Positions 1 to 9,920 of a stretch of 9,920 nucleotides of DNA are shown here, piece by piece. Under the pieces are notes generated by a model, which was given only the letters and a program-made list of their open reading frames with translations, did not search any database and was not told the DNA's origin. The stretch covers positions 1 to 9,920 of IMG/VR virus record IMGVR_UViG_2690316105_000015, one strand, 5' to 3'. The DNA comes from a virus (Duplodnaviria > Heunggongvirae > Uroviricota > Caudoviricetes). The stretch's first letter is position 1. Each line of letters opens with the position of its first letter. Both the position numbers and the translations under genes were made by a program.

Positions 1-3000
1 CGCCTGCTGGTTCAGATACAGCGTAACGGTGGCTGGGTGACGGAAAAAGACATCACCATTAAGGGCAAAACCACCTCGCAGTATCTGGCCTCGGTGGTGG
101 TGGATAACCTGCCGCCGCGCCCGTTTAATATCCGGATGCGCAGAATGACGCCGGACAGCACCACAGACCAGCTGCAGAACAAAACGCTCTGGTCGTCATA
201 CACCGAAATCATCGATGTGAAACAGTGCTACCCGAACACGGCACTGGTCGGCGTACAGGTGGATTCGGAGCAGTTCGGCAGCCAGCAGGTGAGCCGTAAT
301 TATCATCTTCGCGGGCGCATTCTGCAGGTGCCGTCGAACTATAATCCGCAGACGCGGCAATACAGCGGTATCTGGGACGGAACGTTAAAACCGGCATACA
401 GCAACAACATGGCCTGGTGTCTGTGGGATATGCTGACCCATCCGCGCTATGGCATGGGGAAACGTCTTGGTGCGGCAGATGTGGATAAATGGGCGCTGTA
501 TGTCATCGGCCAGTACTGTGACCAGTCGGTGCCGGACGGCTTTGGCAGCACGGAGCCGCGCATCACCTGTAATGCCTGGCTGACCACACAGCGCAAGGCG
601 TGGGATGTGCTCAGTGATTTCTGCTCGGCGATGCGCTGTATGCCGGTATGGAACGGGCAGACGCTGACGTTCGTGCAGGACCGACCATCGGATAAGGTGT
701 GGACCTATAACCGCAGTAATGTGGTGATGCCGGATGATGGCGCGCCGTTCCGCTACAGTTTCAGCGCCCTGAAAGACCGCCATAATGCCGTTGAGGTGAA
801 CTGGATTGACCCGGATAACGGCTGGGAGACGGCGACAGAGCTTGTGGAGGATACGCAGGCCATTGTCCGTTACGGTCGTAACGTCACGAAGATGGATGCC
901 TTTGGCTGTACCAGCCGGGGGCAGGCACACCGCGCCGGGCTGTGGCTGATTAAAACGGAACTGCTGGAGACGCAGACCGTGGATTTCAGCGTGGGTGCTG
1001 AAGGGCTTCGTCATGTACCGGGCGATGTCATTGAAATCTGCGATGATGACTATGCCGGTATCCGCACCGGCGGGCGCGTGCTGGCGGTGAACAGCCAGAC
1101 CCGGACGCTGACGCTTGACCGTGAAATCACGCTGCCATCCTCCGGCACCACGCTGATAAGCCTGGTTGACGGGCAGGGGAATCCGGTCAGCGTGGAGGTC
1201 CAGTCCGTCACCGACGGCGTGAAGGTAAAAGTGAGCCGTGTTCCTGACGGTGTTGCTGAATACAGCGTGTGGGGGCTGAAGCTGCCGACGCTGCACCAGC
1301 GATTGTTCCGCTGCGTGAGTATCCGTGAGAACGACGACGGCACGTATGCCATCACCGCCGTGCAGCATGTGCCGGAAAAAGAAGCCATCGTGGATAACGG
1401 GGCGCACTTTGACGGCGACCAGAGCGGCACGGTGAATGGTGTCACGCCGCCAGCGGTGCAGCACCTGACTGCCGAAGTCACCGCAGACAGCGGGGAATAT
1501 CAGGTGCTGGCGCGCTGGGACACGCCGAAGGTGGTGAAGGGCGTGAGCTTCCTGCTCCGTCTGACCGTAACAGCGGATGACGGCAGTGAGCGGCTGGTCA
1601 GCACGGCCCGGACGACGGAAACCACTTACCGCTTCACACAACTGGCGCTGGGGAACTACAGGCTGACAGTCCGGGCAGTAAATGCGTGGGGGCAGCAGGG
1701 CGATCCGGCGTCGGTATCGTTCCGGATTGCCGCACCGGCAGCGCTGTCGCGGATTGAGCTGACGCCGGGCTATTTTCAGATAACCGCCACGCCGCATCTT
1801 GCGGTTTATGATCCGACGGTACAGTTTGAGTTCTGGTTCTCGGAAAAGCGGATTGCGGATATCAGGCAGGTTGAAACCACAGCACGCTATCTTGGCACGG
1901 CGCTGTACTGGATAGCCGCCAGTATCAATATCAAACCGGGCCATGATTATTACTTTTATATCCGCAGTGTGAACACCGTTGGCAAATCGGCATTCGTGGA
2001 GGCTGTTGGTCAGCCGAGTGATGATGCATCCGGTTATCTGGATTTTTTCAAAGGCGAGATAGGGAAAACCCATCTGGCTCAGGAGCTGTGGACGCAGATT
2101 GATAACGGTCAGCTTGCGCCTGACCTGGCTGAAATCAGGACGTCCATTACGGATGTCAGCAATGAAATCACGCAGACCGTCAATAAGAAACTGGAAGACC
2201 AGAGTGCGGCAATTCAGCAGATACAGAAGGTTCAGGTTGATACAAATAATAACCTGAACAGCATGTGGGCTGTGAAGCTGCAGCAGATGCAGGACGGACG
2301 CCTTTATATCGCGGGTATTGGTGCCGGTATTGAGAACACCCCTGACGGCATGCAGAGTCAGGTGCTGCTGGCGGCGGACAGGATTGCGATGGTTAATCCT
2401 GCGAATGGCAACACAAAACCGATGTTTGTTGGTCAGGGCGATCAGATATTCATGAACGACGTGTTCCTGAAACGCCTGACGGCCCCCACCATTACCAGCG
2501 GTGGAAATCCATCGGCATTTTCCCTGACTCCGGACGGAAAGCTGACCGCTAAAAATGCGGATATCAGTGGCAGTGTGAATGCGAACGCCGGGACGCTCAA
2601 CAATGTCACGGTAAATGAAAACTGTACGATTAAGGGCATGCTGGAGGCGACTCAGGTCAGAGGTGACTTCGTTAAAGCTGTATCCAAATCATTTCCGAAA
2701 CAGGCTGGTACGTGGGGTAACACGGAAACACCAAACGGGACGGTTACAGTCACCATAAGCGATGATCATAACTTTGACCGCCAGATTATTATTCCGCCCA
2801 TTATTTTTAACGGTATAGCGTATGACGATCCGGGGAGCGGAAATAACCCAGGAGGCACGCGATACACGGGTTATGGTTTTGAAGTTCGCAAAAACGGCGT
2901 ATTAATCGCATCCAGAGAAACTAAAGGTGCCATTCCCGGTAGTTACAGTGCAGTTATTGATATGCCTAGTGGTGGTGGTAGCGTCACTCTGGAGTTTAAG

Positions 3001-3093
3001 ATTTTCCAGAAAGGCAATCAGGGGGCAGGCAATATCACCGACTGTACGGTGATTGTGACCAAAAAAGCGGCTTCCGGCATCAGTATTCGTTGA
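1..3093 (+). CDS. J: Host specificity protein J (central tail fibre / tip attachment protein), 5'-partial; the reading frame is open from base 1, so the gene starts upstream of the window
   Basis: Frame 1 is open from position 1 to TGA at 3091-3093 (the ORF track lists the first in-frame Met at 37). The translation reads like lambda gpJ over most of its length as I remember it (e.g. [63 protein letters not shown], fibronectin-III-like segment around [22 protein letters not shown]). Gene order J-lom-stf-tfa matches lambda. Confidence 0.93.
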
Positions 3094-3115
3094 AATATTT
3101 ATAACCCCAATAAAT

Positions 3116-3139
3116 GGCGTCAGGAATGACGCCTTTTTT
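3116..3139 (+). terminator. Intrinsic (rho-independent) terminator downstream of J
   Basis: Perfect 7-bp GC-rich stem GGCGTCA (3116-3122) / TGACGCC (3127-3133), 4-nt loop GGAA, followed by T6 (3134-3139); lies 23 nt after the J stop codon. Confidence 0.8.
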
Positions 3140-3163
3140 ATTGCAGAAAAGCGAGAGGTAATT

Positions 3164-3763
3164 ATGCGTAAAGTTTGTGCAGCCATTTTGTCCGCAGCCA
3201 TTTGCCTGGCCGTATCCGGTGCGCCTGCATGGGCGTCTGAACATCAGTCCACGCTGAGCGCGGGGTATCTTCATGCCCGGACCAACGTTCCCGGCAGTGA
3301 TGATCTGAACGGGATTAACGTGAAATACCGTTATGAGTTTACGGACACACTGGGGCTGGTGACGTCATTCAGCTATGCAGGAGACAAGAATCGCCAGCTG
3401 ACCCGTTACAGCGATACCCGCTGGCATGAAGATTCCGTTCGTAACCGCTGGTTCAGCGTAATGGCGGGGCCGTCTGTGCGCGTGAATGAATGGTTCAGCG
3501 CGTATGCGATGGTGGGTGTGGCTTACAGCCGTGTGTCGACTTTCTCCGGGGATTATCTCCGCGTAACTGACAATAAGGGGAAAACGCACGATGTGCTGAC
3601 CGGAAGTGATGACGGTCGCCACAGCAACACGTCTCTGGCGTGGGGAGCTGGCGTGCAGTTTAACCCGACCGAATCCGTGGCCATTGATGTCGCTTATGAA
3701 GGCTCCGGCAGTGGTGACTGGCGCACTGACGGGTTCATCGTGGGTGTTGGTTATAAATTCTGA
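3164..3763 (+). CDS. lom: Outer membrane protein Lom (Ail/Lom family beta-barrel; prophage moron)
   Basis: 199-aa ORF with ATG at 3164 preceded by GAGAGG (3153-3158). N-terminal signal peptide MRKVCAAILSAAICLAVSGAPAWA. The protein reads as near-identical to lambda Lom as I recall it and ends in the typical outer-membrane beta-barrel C-terminus ...GFIVGVGYKF. Confidence 0.95.
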   Translation: MRKVCAAILSAAICLAVSGAPAWASEHQSTLSAGYLHARTNVPGSDDLNGINVKYRYEFTDTLGLVTSFSYAGDKNRQLTRYSDTRWHEDSVRNRWFSVMAGPSVRVNEWFSAYAMVGVAYSRVSTFSGDYLRVTDNKGKTHDVLTGSDDGRHSNTSLAWGAGVQFNPTESVAIDVAYEGSGSGDWRTDGFIVGVGYKF

Positions 3764-3789
3764 TTAGCCAGGTAACACAGTGTTATGAC

Positions 3790-3816
3790 AGCCCGCCGGT
3801 TCAGGCGGGCTTTTTT
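3790..3816 (+). terminator. Intrinsic terminator downstream of lom
   Basis: Stem AGCCCGCC (3790-3797) / GGCGGGCT (3804-3811), 6-nt loop GGTTCA, followed by a T run (3811-3816); lies between the lom stop and the stf start. Confidence 0.85.
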
Positions 3817-3827
3817 GTGGGGTGAAT

Positions 3828-6800
3828 ATGGCAGTAAAAATTTCAGGTGTACTGAAAGACGGCACAGGAAAACCGGTACAGAACTGCACAATCCAGCTGA
3901 AAGCAAAACGTAACAGCACCACGGTGGTGGTGAACACGCTGGCCTCAGAAAATCCGGATGAAGCCGGGCGTTACAGCATGGACGTTGAGTACGGTCAGTA
4001 CAGCGTTATTCTGTTGGTGGANNNNNNNNNNNNNATTTCAGGTGTACTGAAAGACGGCACAGGAAAACCGGTACAGAACTGCACAATCCAGCTGAAAGCA
4101 AAACGTAACAGTACCACGGTGGTGGTGAACACGCTGGCATCTGAAAATCCGGATGAAGCCGGGCGTTACAGTATGGACGTTGAGTACGGTCAGTACAGCG
4201 TTATTCTGTTGGTGGAAGGATTCCCGCCGTCACATGCCGGGACCATCACAGTGTATGAAGATTCCCGACCCGGTACGCTGAATGATTTTCTCGGTGCCAT
4301 GACGGAGGATGATGCCCGTCCGGAGGCACTGCGCCGTTTTGAGCTGATGGTGGAAGAGGTGGCGCGTAACGCGTCCGTGGTGGCACAGAACACGGCAGCC
4401 GCGAAGAAGTCAGCCAGTGATGCCAGCACATCAGCCCGTGAGGCGGCAACCCATGCGACTGATGCTGCAGGCTCAGCACGCGCAGCCAGCACGTCAGCCG
4501 GACAGGCCGCGTCGTCGGCTCAGTCAGCGACTTCCAGCGCAGGAACGGCATCAACAAAGGCCACTGAAGCATCAAAAAGTGCTGCCGCTGCAGAGTCCTC
4601 AAAAAGCGCGGCAGCTACCAGTGCCAGTGCCGCGAAAACGTCAGAAACGAATGCGGCAGCGTCACAACAATCAGCAGCCACTTCTGCATCCACCGCGACT
4701 ACGAAAGCGTCAGAAGCTGCCACCTCAGCCCGGGATGCGGCGGCTTCAAAAGAGGCGGCAAAATCATCAGAAACGAACGCATCCTCGAGCGCCAGTAGCG
4801 CAGCTTCCTCGGCAACAGCGGCAGGAAATTCCGCGAAGGCGGCAAAAACGTCAGAGACGAACGCCAGGTCTTCTGAAACGGCAGCGGGACAGAGCGCCTC
4901 GGCTGCGGCAGGCTCAAAAACAGCGGCTGCGTCGTCTGCCAGTGCAGCGTCAACAAGTGCCGGGCAGGCCTCAGCCAGTGCCACCGCCGCCGGAAAATCG
5001 GCAGAAAGCGCCGCATCGTCTGCTTCAACAGCCACAACGAAGGCTGGCGAAGCCACTGAACAGGCCAGCGCAGCAGCGAGGTCTGCTTCCGCAGCGAAGA
5101 CATCCGAAACGAACGCGAAAGCGTCGGAAACCAGCGCAGAATCCTCAAAAACGGCTGCCGCATCGTCCGCCAGTTCGGCGGCGTCATCGGCATCATCTGC
5201 GTCTGCTTCAAAAGATGAGGCGACCAGACAAGCGTCAGCAGCGAAGAGCAGCGCCACGACGGCATCCACGAAGGCGACAGAGGCAGCTGGCAGTGCGACG
5301 GCGGCAGCTCAGAGCAAAAGTACGGCGGAATCCGCGGCAACGCGCGCCGAGACAGCAGCTAAACGGGCAGAGGATATTGCATCCGCCGTGGCGCTTGAGG
5401 ATGCAAGTACGACGAAAAAGGGGATAGTACAGCTCAGCAGTGCGACCAACAGCACATCTGAAACGCTTGCCGCGACACCGAAGGCAGTTAAAGCAGCGAA
5501 TGACAATGCGAATGGCAGGGTACCATCTAACCGAAAAGTTAACGGGAAAGCACTGACTGCGGATATAACATTAACACCGAAAGATATTGGCACTTTAAAT
5601 TCAGTAACGATCTCTTTCTCTGGCGGGGCAGGGTGGTTCAAACTGGCAACGGTTACCATGCCACAAGCGAGTTCCATCGTTTACATCGCATTGATTGGTG
5701 GCGCTGGTTACAACGTCGGCTCCCCACATCAGGCAGGCATTTCAGAACTGGTTCTACGAGCAGGCAATGGAAACCCCAAAGGGATTACCGGAGCTTTGTG
5801 GAAGCGTACAGCCGTCGGATTAACGAATTTCGCCTGGATCAACACATCCGGCGATACATATGATATTTACGTTGAGATTGGCAATTATGCGACGAGTGTA
5901 AATATCCATTGGGATTGTACTACAAATGCGTCAGTTTCTATTTATACCTCGCCAACATATTCAGCGAGTAAGCCTTCCAGCGTTACCGGTGGTGTTGTTT
6001 ATACGATGTATAGCTCACATCAGAAACCTACACCATCAGATATTGGAGCGCTGCCAACGACTGGAGGGACTATTTCAGGTCCGTTGTCTGTTACTGATGG
6101 GATCACCGGGGCACTGAAGGGGAACGCCGATACCGCGACGAAACTTGCGGCAGCCCCAAAAATTAACGGTGTTAAGTTTGATGGCTCGGCGGATATTAAC
6201 CTCACGCCGGAAAATATTGGTGCATTTGCCCGACGTTCGACGGGGGCTTATGCGGATTCGGATGGAGCCGTTCCCTGGAATGCCGAATCAGGCGCTTACA
6301 ATGTCACCCGCTCTGGCAACAGCTATATTCTGGTTAACTTCTATACCGGAGTCGGAAGTTGCCGGACCTTGCAGATGAAGGCACATTACAGAAATGGAGG
6401 TCTGTTCTACCGTTCCTCAAGAGATGGCTATGGTTTTGAGGAAGACTGGGCAGAAGTTTATACCTCGAAAAATCTTCCACCAGAAAGCTACCCAGTCGGC
6501 GCACCAATCCCGTGGCCATCAGATACCGTTCCGTCTGGTTATGCCCTGATGCAGGGGCAGACTTTTGACAAATCTGCTTACCCGAAACTTGCAGCCGCTT
6601 ATCCGTCAGGTGTGATCCCTGATATGCGTGGCTGGACGATTAAGGGCAAACCTGCCAGTGGTCGGGCCGTATTGTCTCAGGAACAGGACGGCATTAAATC
6701 GCACACCCACAGCGCCAGCGTATCCAGTACGGATTTGGGGACGAAAAACACATCGTCGTTTGATTACGGAACCAAATCCACGAATAACACCGGGGCGCAT

Positions 6801-7181
6801 ACCCATAGTATTAGCGGGACTGCAAATAGTGCCGGTGCGCACCAACACAAGAGTTCCGGTGCATTTGGTGGCACGAACACGAGCATTTTCCCTAATGGTT
6901 ATACCGCGATTTCAAATCTAAGCGCGGGGATTATGAGCACAACAAGCGGTAGTGGCCAGACTCGTAATGCAGGGAAGACATCATCAGATGGTGCTCATAC
7001 CCACTCGCTGTCCGGCACTGCTGCAAGCGCAGGCGCACATGCACATACTGTCGGTATTGGTGCTCATACGCACTCCGTTGCGATTGGCTCACATGGACAC
7101 ACCATCACCGTTAACGCTGCTGGTAACGCGGAAAACACCGTCAAAAACATCGCATTTAACTATATTGTGAGGCTTGCATAA
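3828..7181 (+). CDS. stf: Side tail fibre protein Stf; the reading frame passes through a 13-N gap (4022-4034) and a duplicated 182-bp segment, so the true length is probably 65 codons shorter
   Basis: ATG at 3828 (the ORF track starts at an upstream GTG, 3822), stop TAA 7179-7181. Conserved N-terminus [26 protein letters not shown], long Ala/Ser/Thr-rich fibrous repeat region, and a C-terminus ...[22 protein letters not shown] that matches lambda Stf from memory. His-x-His repeats near the C-terminus. Confidence 0.88.
3840..4216 (+). repeat. Direct tandem duplication of 182 bp (copy 1 3840-4021, copy 2 4035-4216) separated by a 13-N assembly gap (4022-4034)
   Basis: The two copies align base-for-base at an offset of 195 nt, with 4 differences (3917 C/T, 3944 C/A, 3947 A/T, 3977 C/T). 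All four fall on third codon positions and are synonymous in the stf frame. Confidence 0.9.
4370..5420 (+). repeat. Low-complexity Ala/Ser/Thr-rich coding repeat region inside stf, with a recurring K-T/S-S-E-T-N-A unit
   Basis: Repeated nucleotide units such as gcgaaaacgtcagaaacgaatgcg (about 4625), gcaaaatcatcagaaacgaacgca (about 4757), gcaaaaacgtcagagacgaacgcc (about 4845) and gcgaagacatccgaaacgaacgcg (about 5094). This region also generates long spurious ORFs in other frames on both strands. Confidence 0.8.
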
Positions 7182-7765
7182 TGGTATTCAGAATGAGTGA
7201 ACAACCACGGACCATAACAATTTATAATCTGCTGGCCGGAACTAATGAATTTATTGGTGAAGGTGATGCATATATTCCGCCTCATACAGGTCTGCCAGCA
7301 AACAGTACCGATATTGCACCGCCAGATATTCCGGCAGGCTTCGTGGCTGTTTTCAACAGTGATGAGGCATCGTGGCATCTCGTTGAAGATCATCGGGGTA
7401 AAACGGTTTATGACGTGGCTTCCGGCGACGCGTTATTTATTTCTGAACTCGGTCCGTTACCGGAAAATGTTACCTGGTTATCGCCGGAAGGGGAGTTTCA
7501 GAAGTGGAACGGCACAGCCTGGGTGAAGGATACGGAAGCAGAAAAACTGTTCCGGATCCGGGAGGCGGAAGAAACAAAAAACAACCTGATGCAGGTAGCC
7601 AGTGAGCATATTGCGCCGCTTCAGGATGCTGCAGATCTGGAAATCGCAACGGAGGAAGAAACCTCGTTGCTTGAAGCCTGGAAGAAGTATCGAGTGTTGC
7701 TGAATCGTGTTGATACATCAACTGCACCTGATATTGAGTGGCCTACAGTACCTGTTATGGAATAA
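7181..7765 (+). CDS. tfa: Tail fibre assembly protein Tfa (chaperone for Stf)
   Basis: ATG at 7181 overlaps the stf stop by 1 nt (taATGg), indicating translational coupling. The 194-aa product [54 protein letters not shown]... reads like lambda Tfa as I remember it. Stop TAA at 7763-7765. Confidence 0.95.
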
Positions 7766-7822
7766 TCGTTACTGCTGTAGCCATAATAACGTCATATACA
7801 AGAGCTTGCTGGACTACGAAGA

Positions 7823-8030
7823 ATGCGCGCTGATTTTGAAGATAAAATCAGTGGTACAAAGTCCGAAAGGCCTGGGCTGAAAAAACTACTCAGAATATTA
7901 TCGGCAGGTGACACACTGATTGTCTGAAAGCTGGACTGACTGGGGGCGTTTTTTCTTCCATGTTATGGGGCTCAGGCCGAAATGGAACGTGGACTGACTG
8001 TTAAGAGAACAATAGTCGGGTTTTGAGGCT
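7823..8030 (+). pseudogene. Remnant of a Pin/Gin/Hin-family serine DNA invertase: truncated, with in-frame stops, an internal deletion and a frameshift
   Basis: Translation from 7823 gives MRADFEDKISGTKSERPGLKKLLRILSAGDTLIV*KLD*LG, matching the conserved invertase core ...FEDKxSGTxxDRPGLKxxLxxLxxGDTLVVWKLDRLG. The expected Trp and Arg codons are TGA here (7925-7927 and 7937-7939). A further fragment RFFFHVMG / AQAEMERGLTVKRTIVGF follows in shifted frames and corresponds to RFFFHVMGALAEMERELIIERT. The N-terminal catalytic-serine segment and the C-terminal HTH domain are absent. Confidence 0.7.
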
Positions 8031-8209: not shown

Positions 8210-9844
8210 TTATCGTTGTAAGAGTGATTTAATATTGTTGGCGACTACTTCAGGATTATTATCATAGACCATATAAAGCTTATCACTAAGTAAAGGTAAT
8301 GATAGGTTTACGACCTCCTCGTCTTCTTTTTTTAATAAGGTCAAAAGTTTTACGTCGCCACTCGATATTTCGCTGGCTAAAACTGCTCTTAATTCTTTTT
8401 GAGGCCATTCCTTATTGACTGAATTAGCAGATAAAATAGCGATGACATATTTTGATTTAACTAGTGCTGCATTTATTTTCTCAATTAAGGAGTCGCCCCA
8501 TTTTATCTCAACATGATCTATGAAGGCTGAAATTTTAAGTTTAGTTAACTCGTCATATATTGGAATTGCAATGTCTTTTTTGTCTTCGCTTGCATGGCAT
8601 ATAAAAACATCAAAGTTTTCTGTTTCTTTCATTGCTCGCAATCCTTCTTGGGTTTTTAATGGATCGTTATGACTCATGTATGACATCAGTTTTAAATATC
8701 CTGGATAGTCTTTCCCTCTAACCATTTTTATAAAGCTAAGCCTTCCATAAATATGATTTCGGAAAATTTGAATTGCGTGGTTATTATCCTTTGCCTGATA
8801 TCCTTTTTCTGTAGCAAAGAGAAGTGCATACTTTAGCTTATCATCTGTCCATCTATGAATCATTGAACGTGTAATTCTTATATATCTTCTGTTAATGTTA
8901 ACTTTATCATTAACCACTAAGCCAGTAACACTTTGTCTTGTATTTCTGGTTTGAACTCTAAACTTATCATAATTTATTTTAAAGCCATTTTTTGAAATAA
9001 TATTGTCTATAGTTTCACTAAGACTATAACTTCCGTCATCGTTTTTTTTGATTATATCAATATTTCTCTGATTGAAAGAAAAAGTTATGTCGTCAGCATA
9101 CCTAGAATAAGATATTTTTTTTCTTCCTGCAAATTGGGTGAGCTGTTTGTCTAGAGAAGCTGATGCAATATTTGCTAATATTGGCGATGTACACGCACCT
9201 TGAGGTAATTTTCCATTGTGAGTACATAACTGAGCTAAAACAGTAGCTGCTGGATGAGCAAAATTAAAAGGTTTACTTTTAAATATTCCATAAACCCTGG
9301 CAAAACTTATTGATTCGAAATAGTTTTCTAGGTCAATGTTTACGACAAAATTTTTTTTAATATGCATCCCAGCATTAGTAATGATGCTCTTTCCTTTTAT
9401 AAAACCATGAGCAGATTTCTTTGGCCTGTAGAAATATTCAAGAACGGGCTTTAGTCTCGTTTGGAGTATCGATAGACCGCCACAAGGAGCATTAATGACT
9501 CTTTTTTTACCATTCTTCTTTTCTATTTCAAAAGTACGATAATTATCTTTTTTACGATATAGTATATAAAGTAATTGGCCAGCAGGAACTCCAAGTAAAT
9601 TGGCAATATCACTTACTGATGTTATAGCAATTTCCCCTGACTCAATCAATATACATATTTTAATCAGGTTATCAGGGGGAGTAACTTCAGTGCTAGTAAG
9701 TGTGTGGTTTATCCATTTAATTTTATGTCCATTGCTGTATGGTTTAGGTTCAATTTGAGGAAGTTCAGATATGAAGTCAGGGCTTTTTTTATTGGCTAAT
9801 GCGAAGTTATGCATTAATAATTTATCATGTAGCGACAAAACCAA
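8210..9844 (-). CDS. Retron-type reverse transcriptase fused to a C-terminal TIR domain (RT-TIR; candidate anti-phage defence effector). The true start is probably the TTG at 9838-9836 or the ATG at 9814-9812 rather than the TTG at 9844
   Basis: 544-codon ORF in AT-rich DNA. RT motifs in the expected order: AHGF, NAGMH (NAxxH), VNIDLENYFESI, LPQGACTSPILANI, YADD (codons at 9089-9100, catalytic motif C) and QSVTGLVVNDKVN (the VTG motif typical of retron RTs). C-terminal region about aa 411-500 (about 8345-8614): FDVFICHASEDKKDIAIPIYDEL...YVIAILSANSVNKEWPQKELRAVL, a typical bacterial TIR signature including the conserved Glu (E484, codon 8393-8395). AGGAG at 9849-9845 gives a 6-nt spacing to the TTG at 9838. 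Confidence 0.88.
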   Translation of the reverse strand: MVLSLHDKLLMHNFALANKKSPDFISELPQIEPKPYSNGHKIKWINHTLTSTEVTPPDNLIKICILIESGEIAITSVSDIANLLGVPAGQLLYILYRKKDNYRTFEIEKKNGKKRVINAPCGGLSILQTRLKPVLEYFYRPKKSAHGFIKGKSIITNAGMHIKKNFVVNIDLENYFESISFARVYGIFKSKPFNFAHPAATVLAQLCTHNGKLPQGACTSPILANIASASLDKQLTQFAGRKKISYSRYADDITFSFNQRNIDIIKKNDDGSYSLSETIDNIISKNGFKINYDKFRVQTRNTRQSVTGLVVNDKVNINRRYIRITRSMIHRWTDDKLKYALLFATEKGYQAKDNNHAIQIFRNHIYGRLSFIKMVRGKDYPGYLKLMSYMSHNDPLKTQEGLRAMKETENFDVFICHASEDKKDIAIPIYDELTKLKISAFIDHVEIKWGDSLIEKINAALVKSKYVIAILSANSVNKEWPQKELRAVLASEISSGDVKLLTLLKKEDEEVVNLSLPLLSDKLYMVYDNNPEVVANNIKSLLQR

Positions 9845-9920
9845 CTCCTATCGGATTGTAGGTAATGACTCCAACTTATTGATAGTGTTTTATGTTCAGA
9901 TAATGCCCGATGACTTTGTC

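Follow-up and report, generated by a model that had tools for sequence, protein, structure and literature searches.

The side tail fibre gene (stf) in the stretch of DNA analysed here (the window, 9,920 nt of viral DNA) appears to carry its own 5' end twice, on either side of a short run of uncalled bases. This duplication is almost certainly an artefact of assembly and the real stf an ordinary gene. It can be attributed with high confidence to a short-read scaffold in which two alternative graph edges belonging to paralogous stf genes of prophages ended up one after the other with a placeholder gap between them, the gene itself being single-copy. The true locus would then be one stf of 3,159 nt with one of two haplotypes.

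The repeat and the gap

There is a single run of Ns in the window, 13 long, and it is bordered by two copies of a 182-nt stretch, copy 1 at 3840-4021 and copy 2 at 4035-4216, with a start-to-start offset of 195 nt. Both copies abut the edges of the gap on one scaffold, copy 1 ending at 4021, the Ns occupying 4022-4034 and copy 2 starting at 4035, and a gap separating duplicated pairs within a scaffold counts among the hallmarks listed for false duplications (PMC9516828). A repeat of this length with 98% identity is far beyond chance and is the sole direct repeat of at least 30 nt within 3000-5000. The first 77 nt are common to both copies, at 3840-3916 and again at 4035-4111, and divergence begins at 3917/4112. 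In all there are four mismatches between copy 1 and copy 2 (3917 C/T, 3944 C/A, 3947 A/T and 3977 C/T), each at codon position 3 in the stf frame that starts with the ATG at 3828. The reading frame is open through both copies, and the collapsed stf proteins are identical whichever copy is kept, therefore all four differences are synonymous. The preliminary description of this DNA, which had reported the 13-N run, the 182-nt copies, the exact 195-nt offset and the four synonymous third-position differences, was exact in every one of these points.

Table 1. Features of the window, with positions, strand and the basis of each assignment
Feature	Position	Strand	Basis
3' part of lambda-type tail tip gene J (left contig)	37-3093	+	Pfam Phage-tail_3, Ig_J, Phage_Tail_Tip, Ig_GpJ_C; annotated gpJ in closed genomes
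lom, Ail/Lom outer-membrane protein gene (left contig)	3164-3763	+	Pfam Ail_Lom, E = 1e-121, full length
stf, interrupted by the gap	3828-7181	+	Pfam
Start of stf and end of the left contig, holding copy 1	3828-4021	+	Haplotype A3839 / C3917 C3944 A3947 C3977 / T3995
77-nt stretch common to both copies; proposed shared 77-mer vertex	3840-3916	+	Coordinates, graph reconstruction
Scaffold gap (placeholder), 13 N	4022-4034	.	Sequence
Copy 2, the start of the right contig, from stf nucleotide 13	4035-4216	+	Haplotype T4112 A4139 T4142 T4172, then A4217
Remainder of stf (right contig)	4035-7181	+	Pfam phage_tail_N positions 5-134/134 and Collar
tfa (tail fibre assembly gene)	7181-7765	+	Pfam Caudo_TAP
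Reverse transcriptase-TIR fusion (RT-TIR), retron type XII	8210-9844	-	Pfam RVT_1 and TIR_2; PADLOC RT-TIR_XII, E = 7e-188
IS1 element, terminal 60 nt, at the window end	9861-9920	.	100% match to IS1A/IS1B ends

The two copies as standing alleles

The differences between the copies were compared with the variation found in 86 stf starts, 80 of them from IMG/VR prophages and 6 from closed-genome loci. All four sites are polymorphic for the same bases among these alleles, with minor counts of 28, 15, 16 and 19, and they are among the six commonest polymorphic sites of 3828-4021. On the evidence of this survey the four differences are standing allelic polymorphisms and sequencing error is rejected as their source; the copies differ by real variant k-mers, as the copies of a false duplication do. 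The preliminary description had taken both the synonymous differences and the in-frame spacing of the copies as signs of divergence filtered by selection, as opposed to random error. The first part of this argument holds, as third codon positions make up 38 of the 45 polymorphic columns, a bias by which the synonymous pattern is explained as purifying selection on real genes. The second part does not, because the 195-nt offset is the sum of 182 and an arbitrary 13 Ns, and its being in frame is a 1-in-3 coincidence without independent weight.

Both haplotypes are carried by natural genes. Over 400 nt copy 2 agrees fully with the stf found in strain GPEC996, and copy 2 together with the next ~1,130 nt matches that gene but for one base; the same haplotype is also single-copy in locus L014. 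The exact 194-nt stf start of the left contig (3828-4021, copy 1 included) occurs in four natural single-copy contigs, L087-L090. The combination of A3839 with CCAC (the copy 1 bases at the four sites) is found in 0/86 alleles, and copy 1 was for a time considered to be a foreign edge, an idea that was dropped on account of the 194-nt string in these four contigs. A3839-TATT (the copy 2 bases) followed by the sequence of the right contig is found in single-copy natural genes at L014 and L001, with 1 mismatch in 950 nt each, and A3839-CCAC followed by the sequence of the right contig is found in one at L088, with 1 mismatch in 500 nt. Judged by these genes, either copy may be the native haplotype.

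Divergent alleles can also reside together in one bacterium. The closed genome EC-JS426 has an ATATT-type and a GCCAC-type stf in two prophages, the two alleles differing at 3839, 3917, 3944, 3947, 3977, 3995 and 4022. This was the second closed genome checked for co-resident alleles, the first, CFSAN064035, having two stf genes of the same haplotype.

Copy number in other genomes

A 1,901-nt query spanning the gap falls short by ~195 nt in closed E. coli genomes: in each of the 30 best that were listed the coverage is 1,704-1,706 nt. The annotated lengths tell the same story, with stf being 3,159 nt in both MIN11 and Res13-Lact-PEB17-18, exactly the 3,354 nt of the window gene less 195 nt. 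The 5' end of the gene is thus single-copy in contiguous assemblies of close relatives, which is a further mark of a false duplication.

The junction that a tandem duplication would create was looked for with a 54-nt probe (27+27) in which each 28-mer crosses the expected junction. Among 5,426 closed E. coli genomes there was no full-length match, with the 28-nt matches being to the ordinary gene start 'AAG ATTTCAGG'. A second pattern allowed 0-30 nt of any filler at the junction and matches the N-run of the window itself; it gave 0 matches in IMG/VR, in 185,579 species-representative genomes and in 241 million metagenome records. No internal repeat was found in the first 400 nt of stf among 92 fetched loci. 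The recurrence in related genomes that would be expected of a genuine duplication was therefore found in none of the closed genomes, the three contig collections or the fetched loci.

The conserved stretch of stf is itself present in a median of 2-3 places per closed genome and in up to 14-16. Short-read assemblies elsewhere also break near the start of stf. L089 and L090, which are two contigs of the metagenome assembly ERZ1026866 (NODE_174 and NODE_186), have the same 194 nt of stf start in common, and what was fetched of them continues for 1,280 nt and 381 nt past this start before it ends. At L033 only 82 nt separate the end of the contig from the point where the match begins. It looks as if contigs habitually break in the conserved 5' end of stf.

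Contig ends and reconstruction of the graph

The positions at which the two contigs end coincide with sites where stf alleles diverge. The right contig starts one base past the equivalent of the polymorphic site 3839 (A/G, 12/86 minor), and the left contig ends one base before the equivalent of 4022, which is window position 4217 (A/G/C, 32/86 non-A); only 15 of 402 columns in the 86 alleles are that polymorphic. A toy de Bruijn graph was built from three real alleles, namely the collapsed window locus and the stf starts of MIN11 and FAM21845, which are common CCAC haplotypes picked by the analyst to stand for the co-resident alleles. At k=77 this graph has one edge that is exactly copy 1 (182 nt), and 4035 is precisely where its TATT edge begins. 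At k=55, 99 and 127 the three-allele graph did not reproduce the contig boundaries. Graphs of two alleles at k=77 gave edges of 215-476 nt and did not reproduce the end of the left contig at 4021, for which reason the two-allele models were rejected; therefore at least three stf paralogues would have been co-resident in the source genome. The contig ends do fall at branch points of the graph, as in a false duplication, with the graph being a reconstruction rather than the real one and the scenario of k=77 with three alleles having been fitted after the fact. From this fit we infer both the identity of the assembler and the value of k.

The series of events that would lead to the scaffold can be set out as follows. 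The source would be a short-read draft of a genome in which several lambdoid prophages have stf genes with near-identical starts, and the conserved 5' end of stf would for that reason have become a tangle in the graph. The alleles would part at 3917, after the shared 77-mer of 3840-3916. The left contig, carrying J, lom and the start of stf, would have been extended through this 77-mer vertex along the 182-nt CCAC edge, which comes to its end a single base ahead of the following branch point, the equivalent of 4217, where the alleles have A, G or C. The right contig would begin at the same 77-mer and continue along the TATT edge through the remaining stf sequence to tfa and RT-TIR. The scaffolder would then have set the two contigs adjacent to each other and written 13 Ns between them, with the 182-nt overlap left unmerged because of the four mismatches. 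The preliminary description had proposed that the ends of two contigs with near-identical stf alleles, for instance from several lambdoid prophages, had been joined, and this proposal is supported by the allelic sites, by the co-residence of alleles in EC-JS426, by the single copies in closed genomes and by the k=77 graph.

Alternative readings and the join of the two contigs

It might be assumed that the duplication is genuine, that is, a tandem in-frame duplication of 65 codons in the N-terminal (tail-attachment) domain of Stf, with a patch of gene conversion to account for the differences and with 13 bases at the junction left uncalled. The offset is a multiple of three, as selection would tolerate, with the frame open through both copies; short-read assemblers do break at tandem repeats, and the junction would sit under the 13 Ns. 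If true this would be a side tail fibre that tolerates a duplication inside one of its domains. However, the junction is absent from the 5,426 closed E. coli genomes and the three contig collections, and 0/92 stf loci have an internal repeat, so the genuine in-frame duplication that the preliminary description kept as a fallback finds no support there. Fresh copies would be identical, whereas each copy here is a pre-existing allele. The second copy would also be a partial one (5-64/134) inside a single phage_tail_N domain, which would probably harm the fold, and given a real 195-nt repeat a contig of the graph would not be expected to end 13 nt before the second 77-mer. A genuine duplication is therefore most improbable. 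Slightly less so, although still very unlikely, is a mixed sample, in which the alleles came from two strains or phage variants that were sequenced together and the assembler kept both at contig ends. Such a mixture would leave the same signature of real alleles with synonymous differences, and two contigs of one metagenome do carry the same 194-nt stf start. Against this, paralogues within a genome are the norm (median 2-3, up to 14-16 copies per closed genome), EC-JS426 alone holds alleles that differ at all four sites, and the boundary at 4021 needs at least three alleles, which are more easily supplied by prophage paralogues than by contamination.

A different question is whether the two contigs belong together, as a false duplication would look the same if the left and right contigs came from two different prophages, having been linked by read pairs or a reference inside the shared repeat. 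A misjoin of this kind would alter the linkage and not the verdict on the duplication. It is suggested by the several stf paralogues that are needed to explain the contig boundaries, and by the RT-TIR prophages of closed genomes, which carry G3839-CCAC and differ from the right contig at ~44 sites in the first ~1,300 nt of stf; furthermore, the best closed-genome match of the left contig is at 97.5%, so its partner cannot be read from a close relative. On the other side, J, lom, stf, tfa and RT-TIR lie in one place in 32 closed E. coli genomes (at least 80% of the region), in this exact gene order in one prophage beside prfC, and the five such loci that were fetched or inspected adjoin DinI-prfC. 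The prophage of MB56, which is the left contig's closest relative, likewise occupies the prfC site and carries other cargo. The left contig's 300 nt upstream of stf together with A3839 best match, with 0-2 mismatches, loci that have a stf of the right-contig type downstream, L014 being such a locus with its 1 mismatch in 950 nt, and the mosaic of the right contig is a natural one, found in the closed genome J6 with 5 mismatches over 4035-6240. On balance a misjoin is unlikely and the join of the left and right contigs is probably correct, with the adjacency of J-lom and stf being plausible from gene order in these relatives. It was rightly pointed out in the preliminary description that, for this scaffold, the linkage of J-lom with stf-tfa-retron rests on the join. 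The scaffold is the sole evidence in the source strain that J-lom and the stf-tfa-RT-TIR retron cargo are in one prophage.

The stf gene in its context

When 3828-3839 is joined to 4035-7181 the result is an intact stf open reading frame of 3,159 nt and 1,052 codons, the product of which agrees at 1045/1052 residues with the Stf protein of strain Res13-Lact-PEB17-18. The left fragment covers positions 1-64 of the 134 positions of phage_tail_N and the right part positions 5-134. The assignment to Stf follows from PF08400, PF07484 and PF02413 in the expected order, with J-lom upstream and tfa directly downstream, and the synteny of the window agrees with that of annotated closed genomes.

The gene is a mosaic. 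From 4035 to ~5170 it is nearly identical to the ydfJ-site prophage of GPEC996, and from ~5330 onward to the RT-TIR prophage of Res13-Lact-PEB17-18; the 5' third of the stf in the right contig was not found in the closed RT-TIR prophages compared. It was considered that the right contig might be an assembly chimera of these two parts (GPEC996-like to ~5170, Res13-like from ~5330), which was rejected because J6 has the same mosaic, its match over 4035-6240 spanning the transition, and the mosaic is thus natural.

Two further features lie downstream. IS009 (Rfam RF02111) has a full-length match at 7524-7722 (+) with 217.9 bits, wholly inside the 3' coding part of tfa. The remnant of a pin-like recombinase gene is found at 7796-8026 (+), between tfa and the RT-TIR gene, and its counterpart in closed genomes is annotated as a frameshifted recombinase pseudogene.

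The retron cargo and the IS1 end

The RT-TIR of type XII is carried by a lambdoid prophage as cargo, in the interval from tfa to DinI-prfC (loci L002-L004 and L095). In strain MB56 a serine acetyltransferase lies in the RT-TIR slot of the related prophage at prfC, which makes this a position of swappable cargo. The RT-TIR gene is annotated as 1,605 nt in closed genomes and its true start is likely to be the ATG at 9814.

The closed genomes depart from the window sequence after 9860, and the IS1 end that follows in the window is found in a median of 10 places per genome. It was also considered whether the window end could be read as an overhang of k-mer length; this was not used, as none of the usual k values corresponds to 60 nt of IS1 and the edge of the window may be arbitrary. 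Past the equivalent of 9860 the closed RT-TIR genomes (L003, 10540-10780) continue into a perfect inverted repeat of 10 nt, CGGCTCTGCC / GGCAGAGCCG, with arms 116 nt apart, which looks like the a1/a2 arms of the retron. No Rfam retron RNA family matched upstream of the RT in a closed relative. IS1 is inserted 46 nt ahead of the ATG of the RT, at a distance of 7 nt from the closer arm of the inverted repeat. In the source strain it therefore seems to lie between the RT-TIR gene on one side and the presumptive msr-msd RNA with its promoter on the other, and this placement may disable the retron.

Comparison with known systems

Once the 195 nt are removed the window gene is a lambda-type stf with its tfa, comparable to the stfR/stfQ-type genes of E. 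coli prophages. It has the same phage_tail_N and Collar domains, with tfa downstream and lom-J upstream, and its length is equal to that of annotated homologues. The mosaicism known for these genes is seen in it too; it differs from them by ordinary allelic mosaicism only, and the extra 65 codons are not the gene's own. Genuine tandem segmental duplications in phage tail fibre genes share with the window the in-frame repeat of a gene segment. In those a single allele is duplicated, whereas here there are two pre-existing alleles, in an arrangement absent from the comparators and with a junction that is unsequenced.

As deposited, the scaffold would give a stf that is too long by 65 spurious codons and contains Xs, or else two gene fragments, and it is open to being miscounted as a duplication of a tail fibre, so that the relevance of the case is one of data hygiene only. 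It does provide a clean bacterial example of paralogous prophage genes giving rise to false duplications at scaffold gaps, and such duplications can be diagnosed from allele surveys and a small graph reconstruction without reads.

The closest parallel is with the false ('heterotype') duplications flanking gaps that have been catalogued for vertebrate assemblies (Ko et al. 2022, Genome Biol 23:205, PMC9516828). That class is defined by read depth and pair discordance, whereas the window case is known from sequence alone; the vertebrate duplications are of kilobase scale, whereas that of the window is 182 nt, a single edge of the graph. The divergent copies in vertebrates are the haplotypes of a diploid, whereas here, in a haploid bacterium, they are most likely paralogous prophage stf genes. 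In both there are near-identical copies on one scaffold with a gap between them, in both the copies differ by genuine allelic variants, and in both the better assemblies of relatives show one copy.
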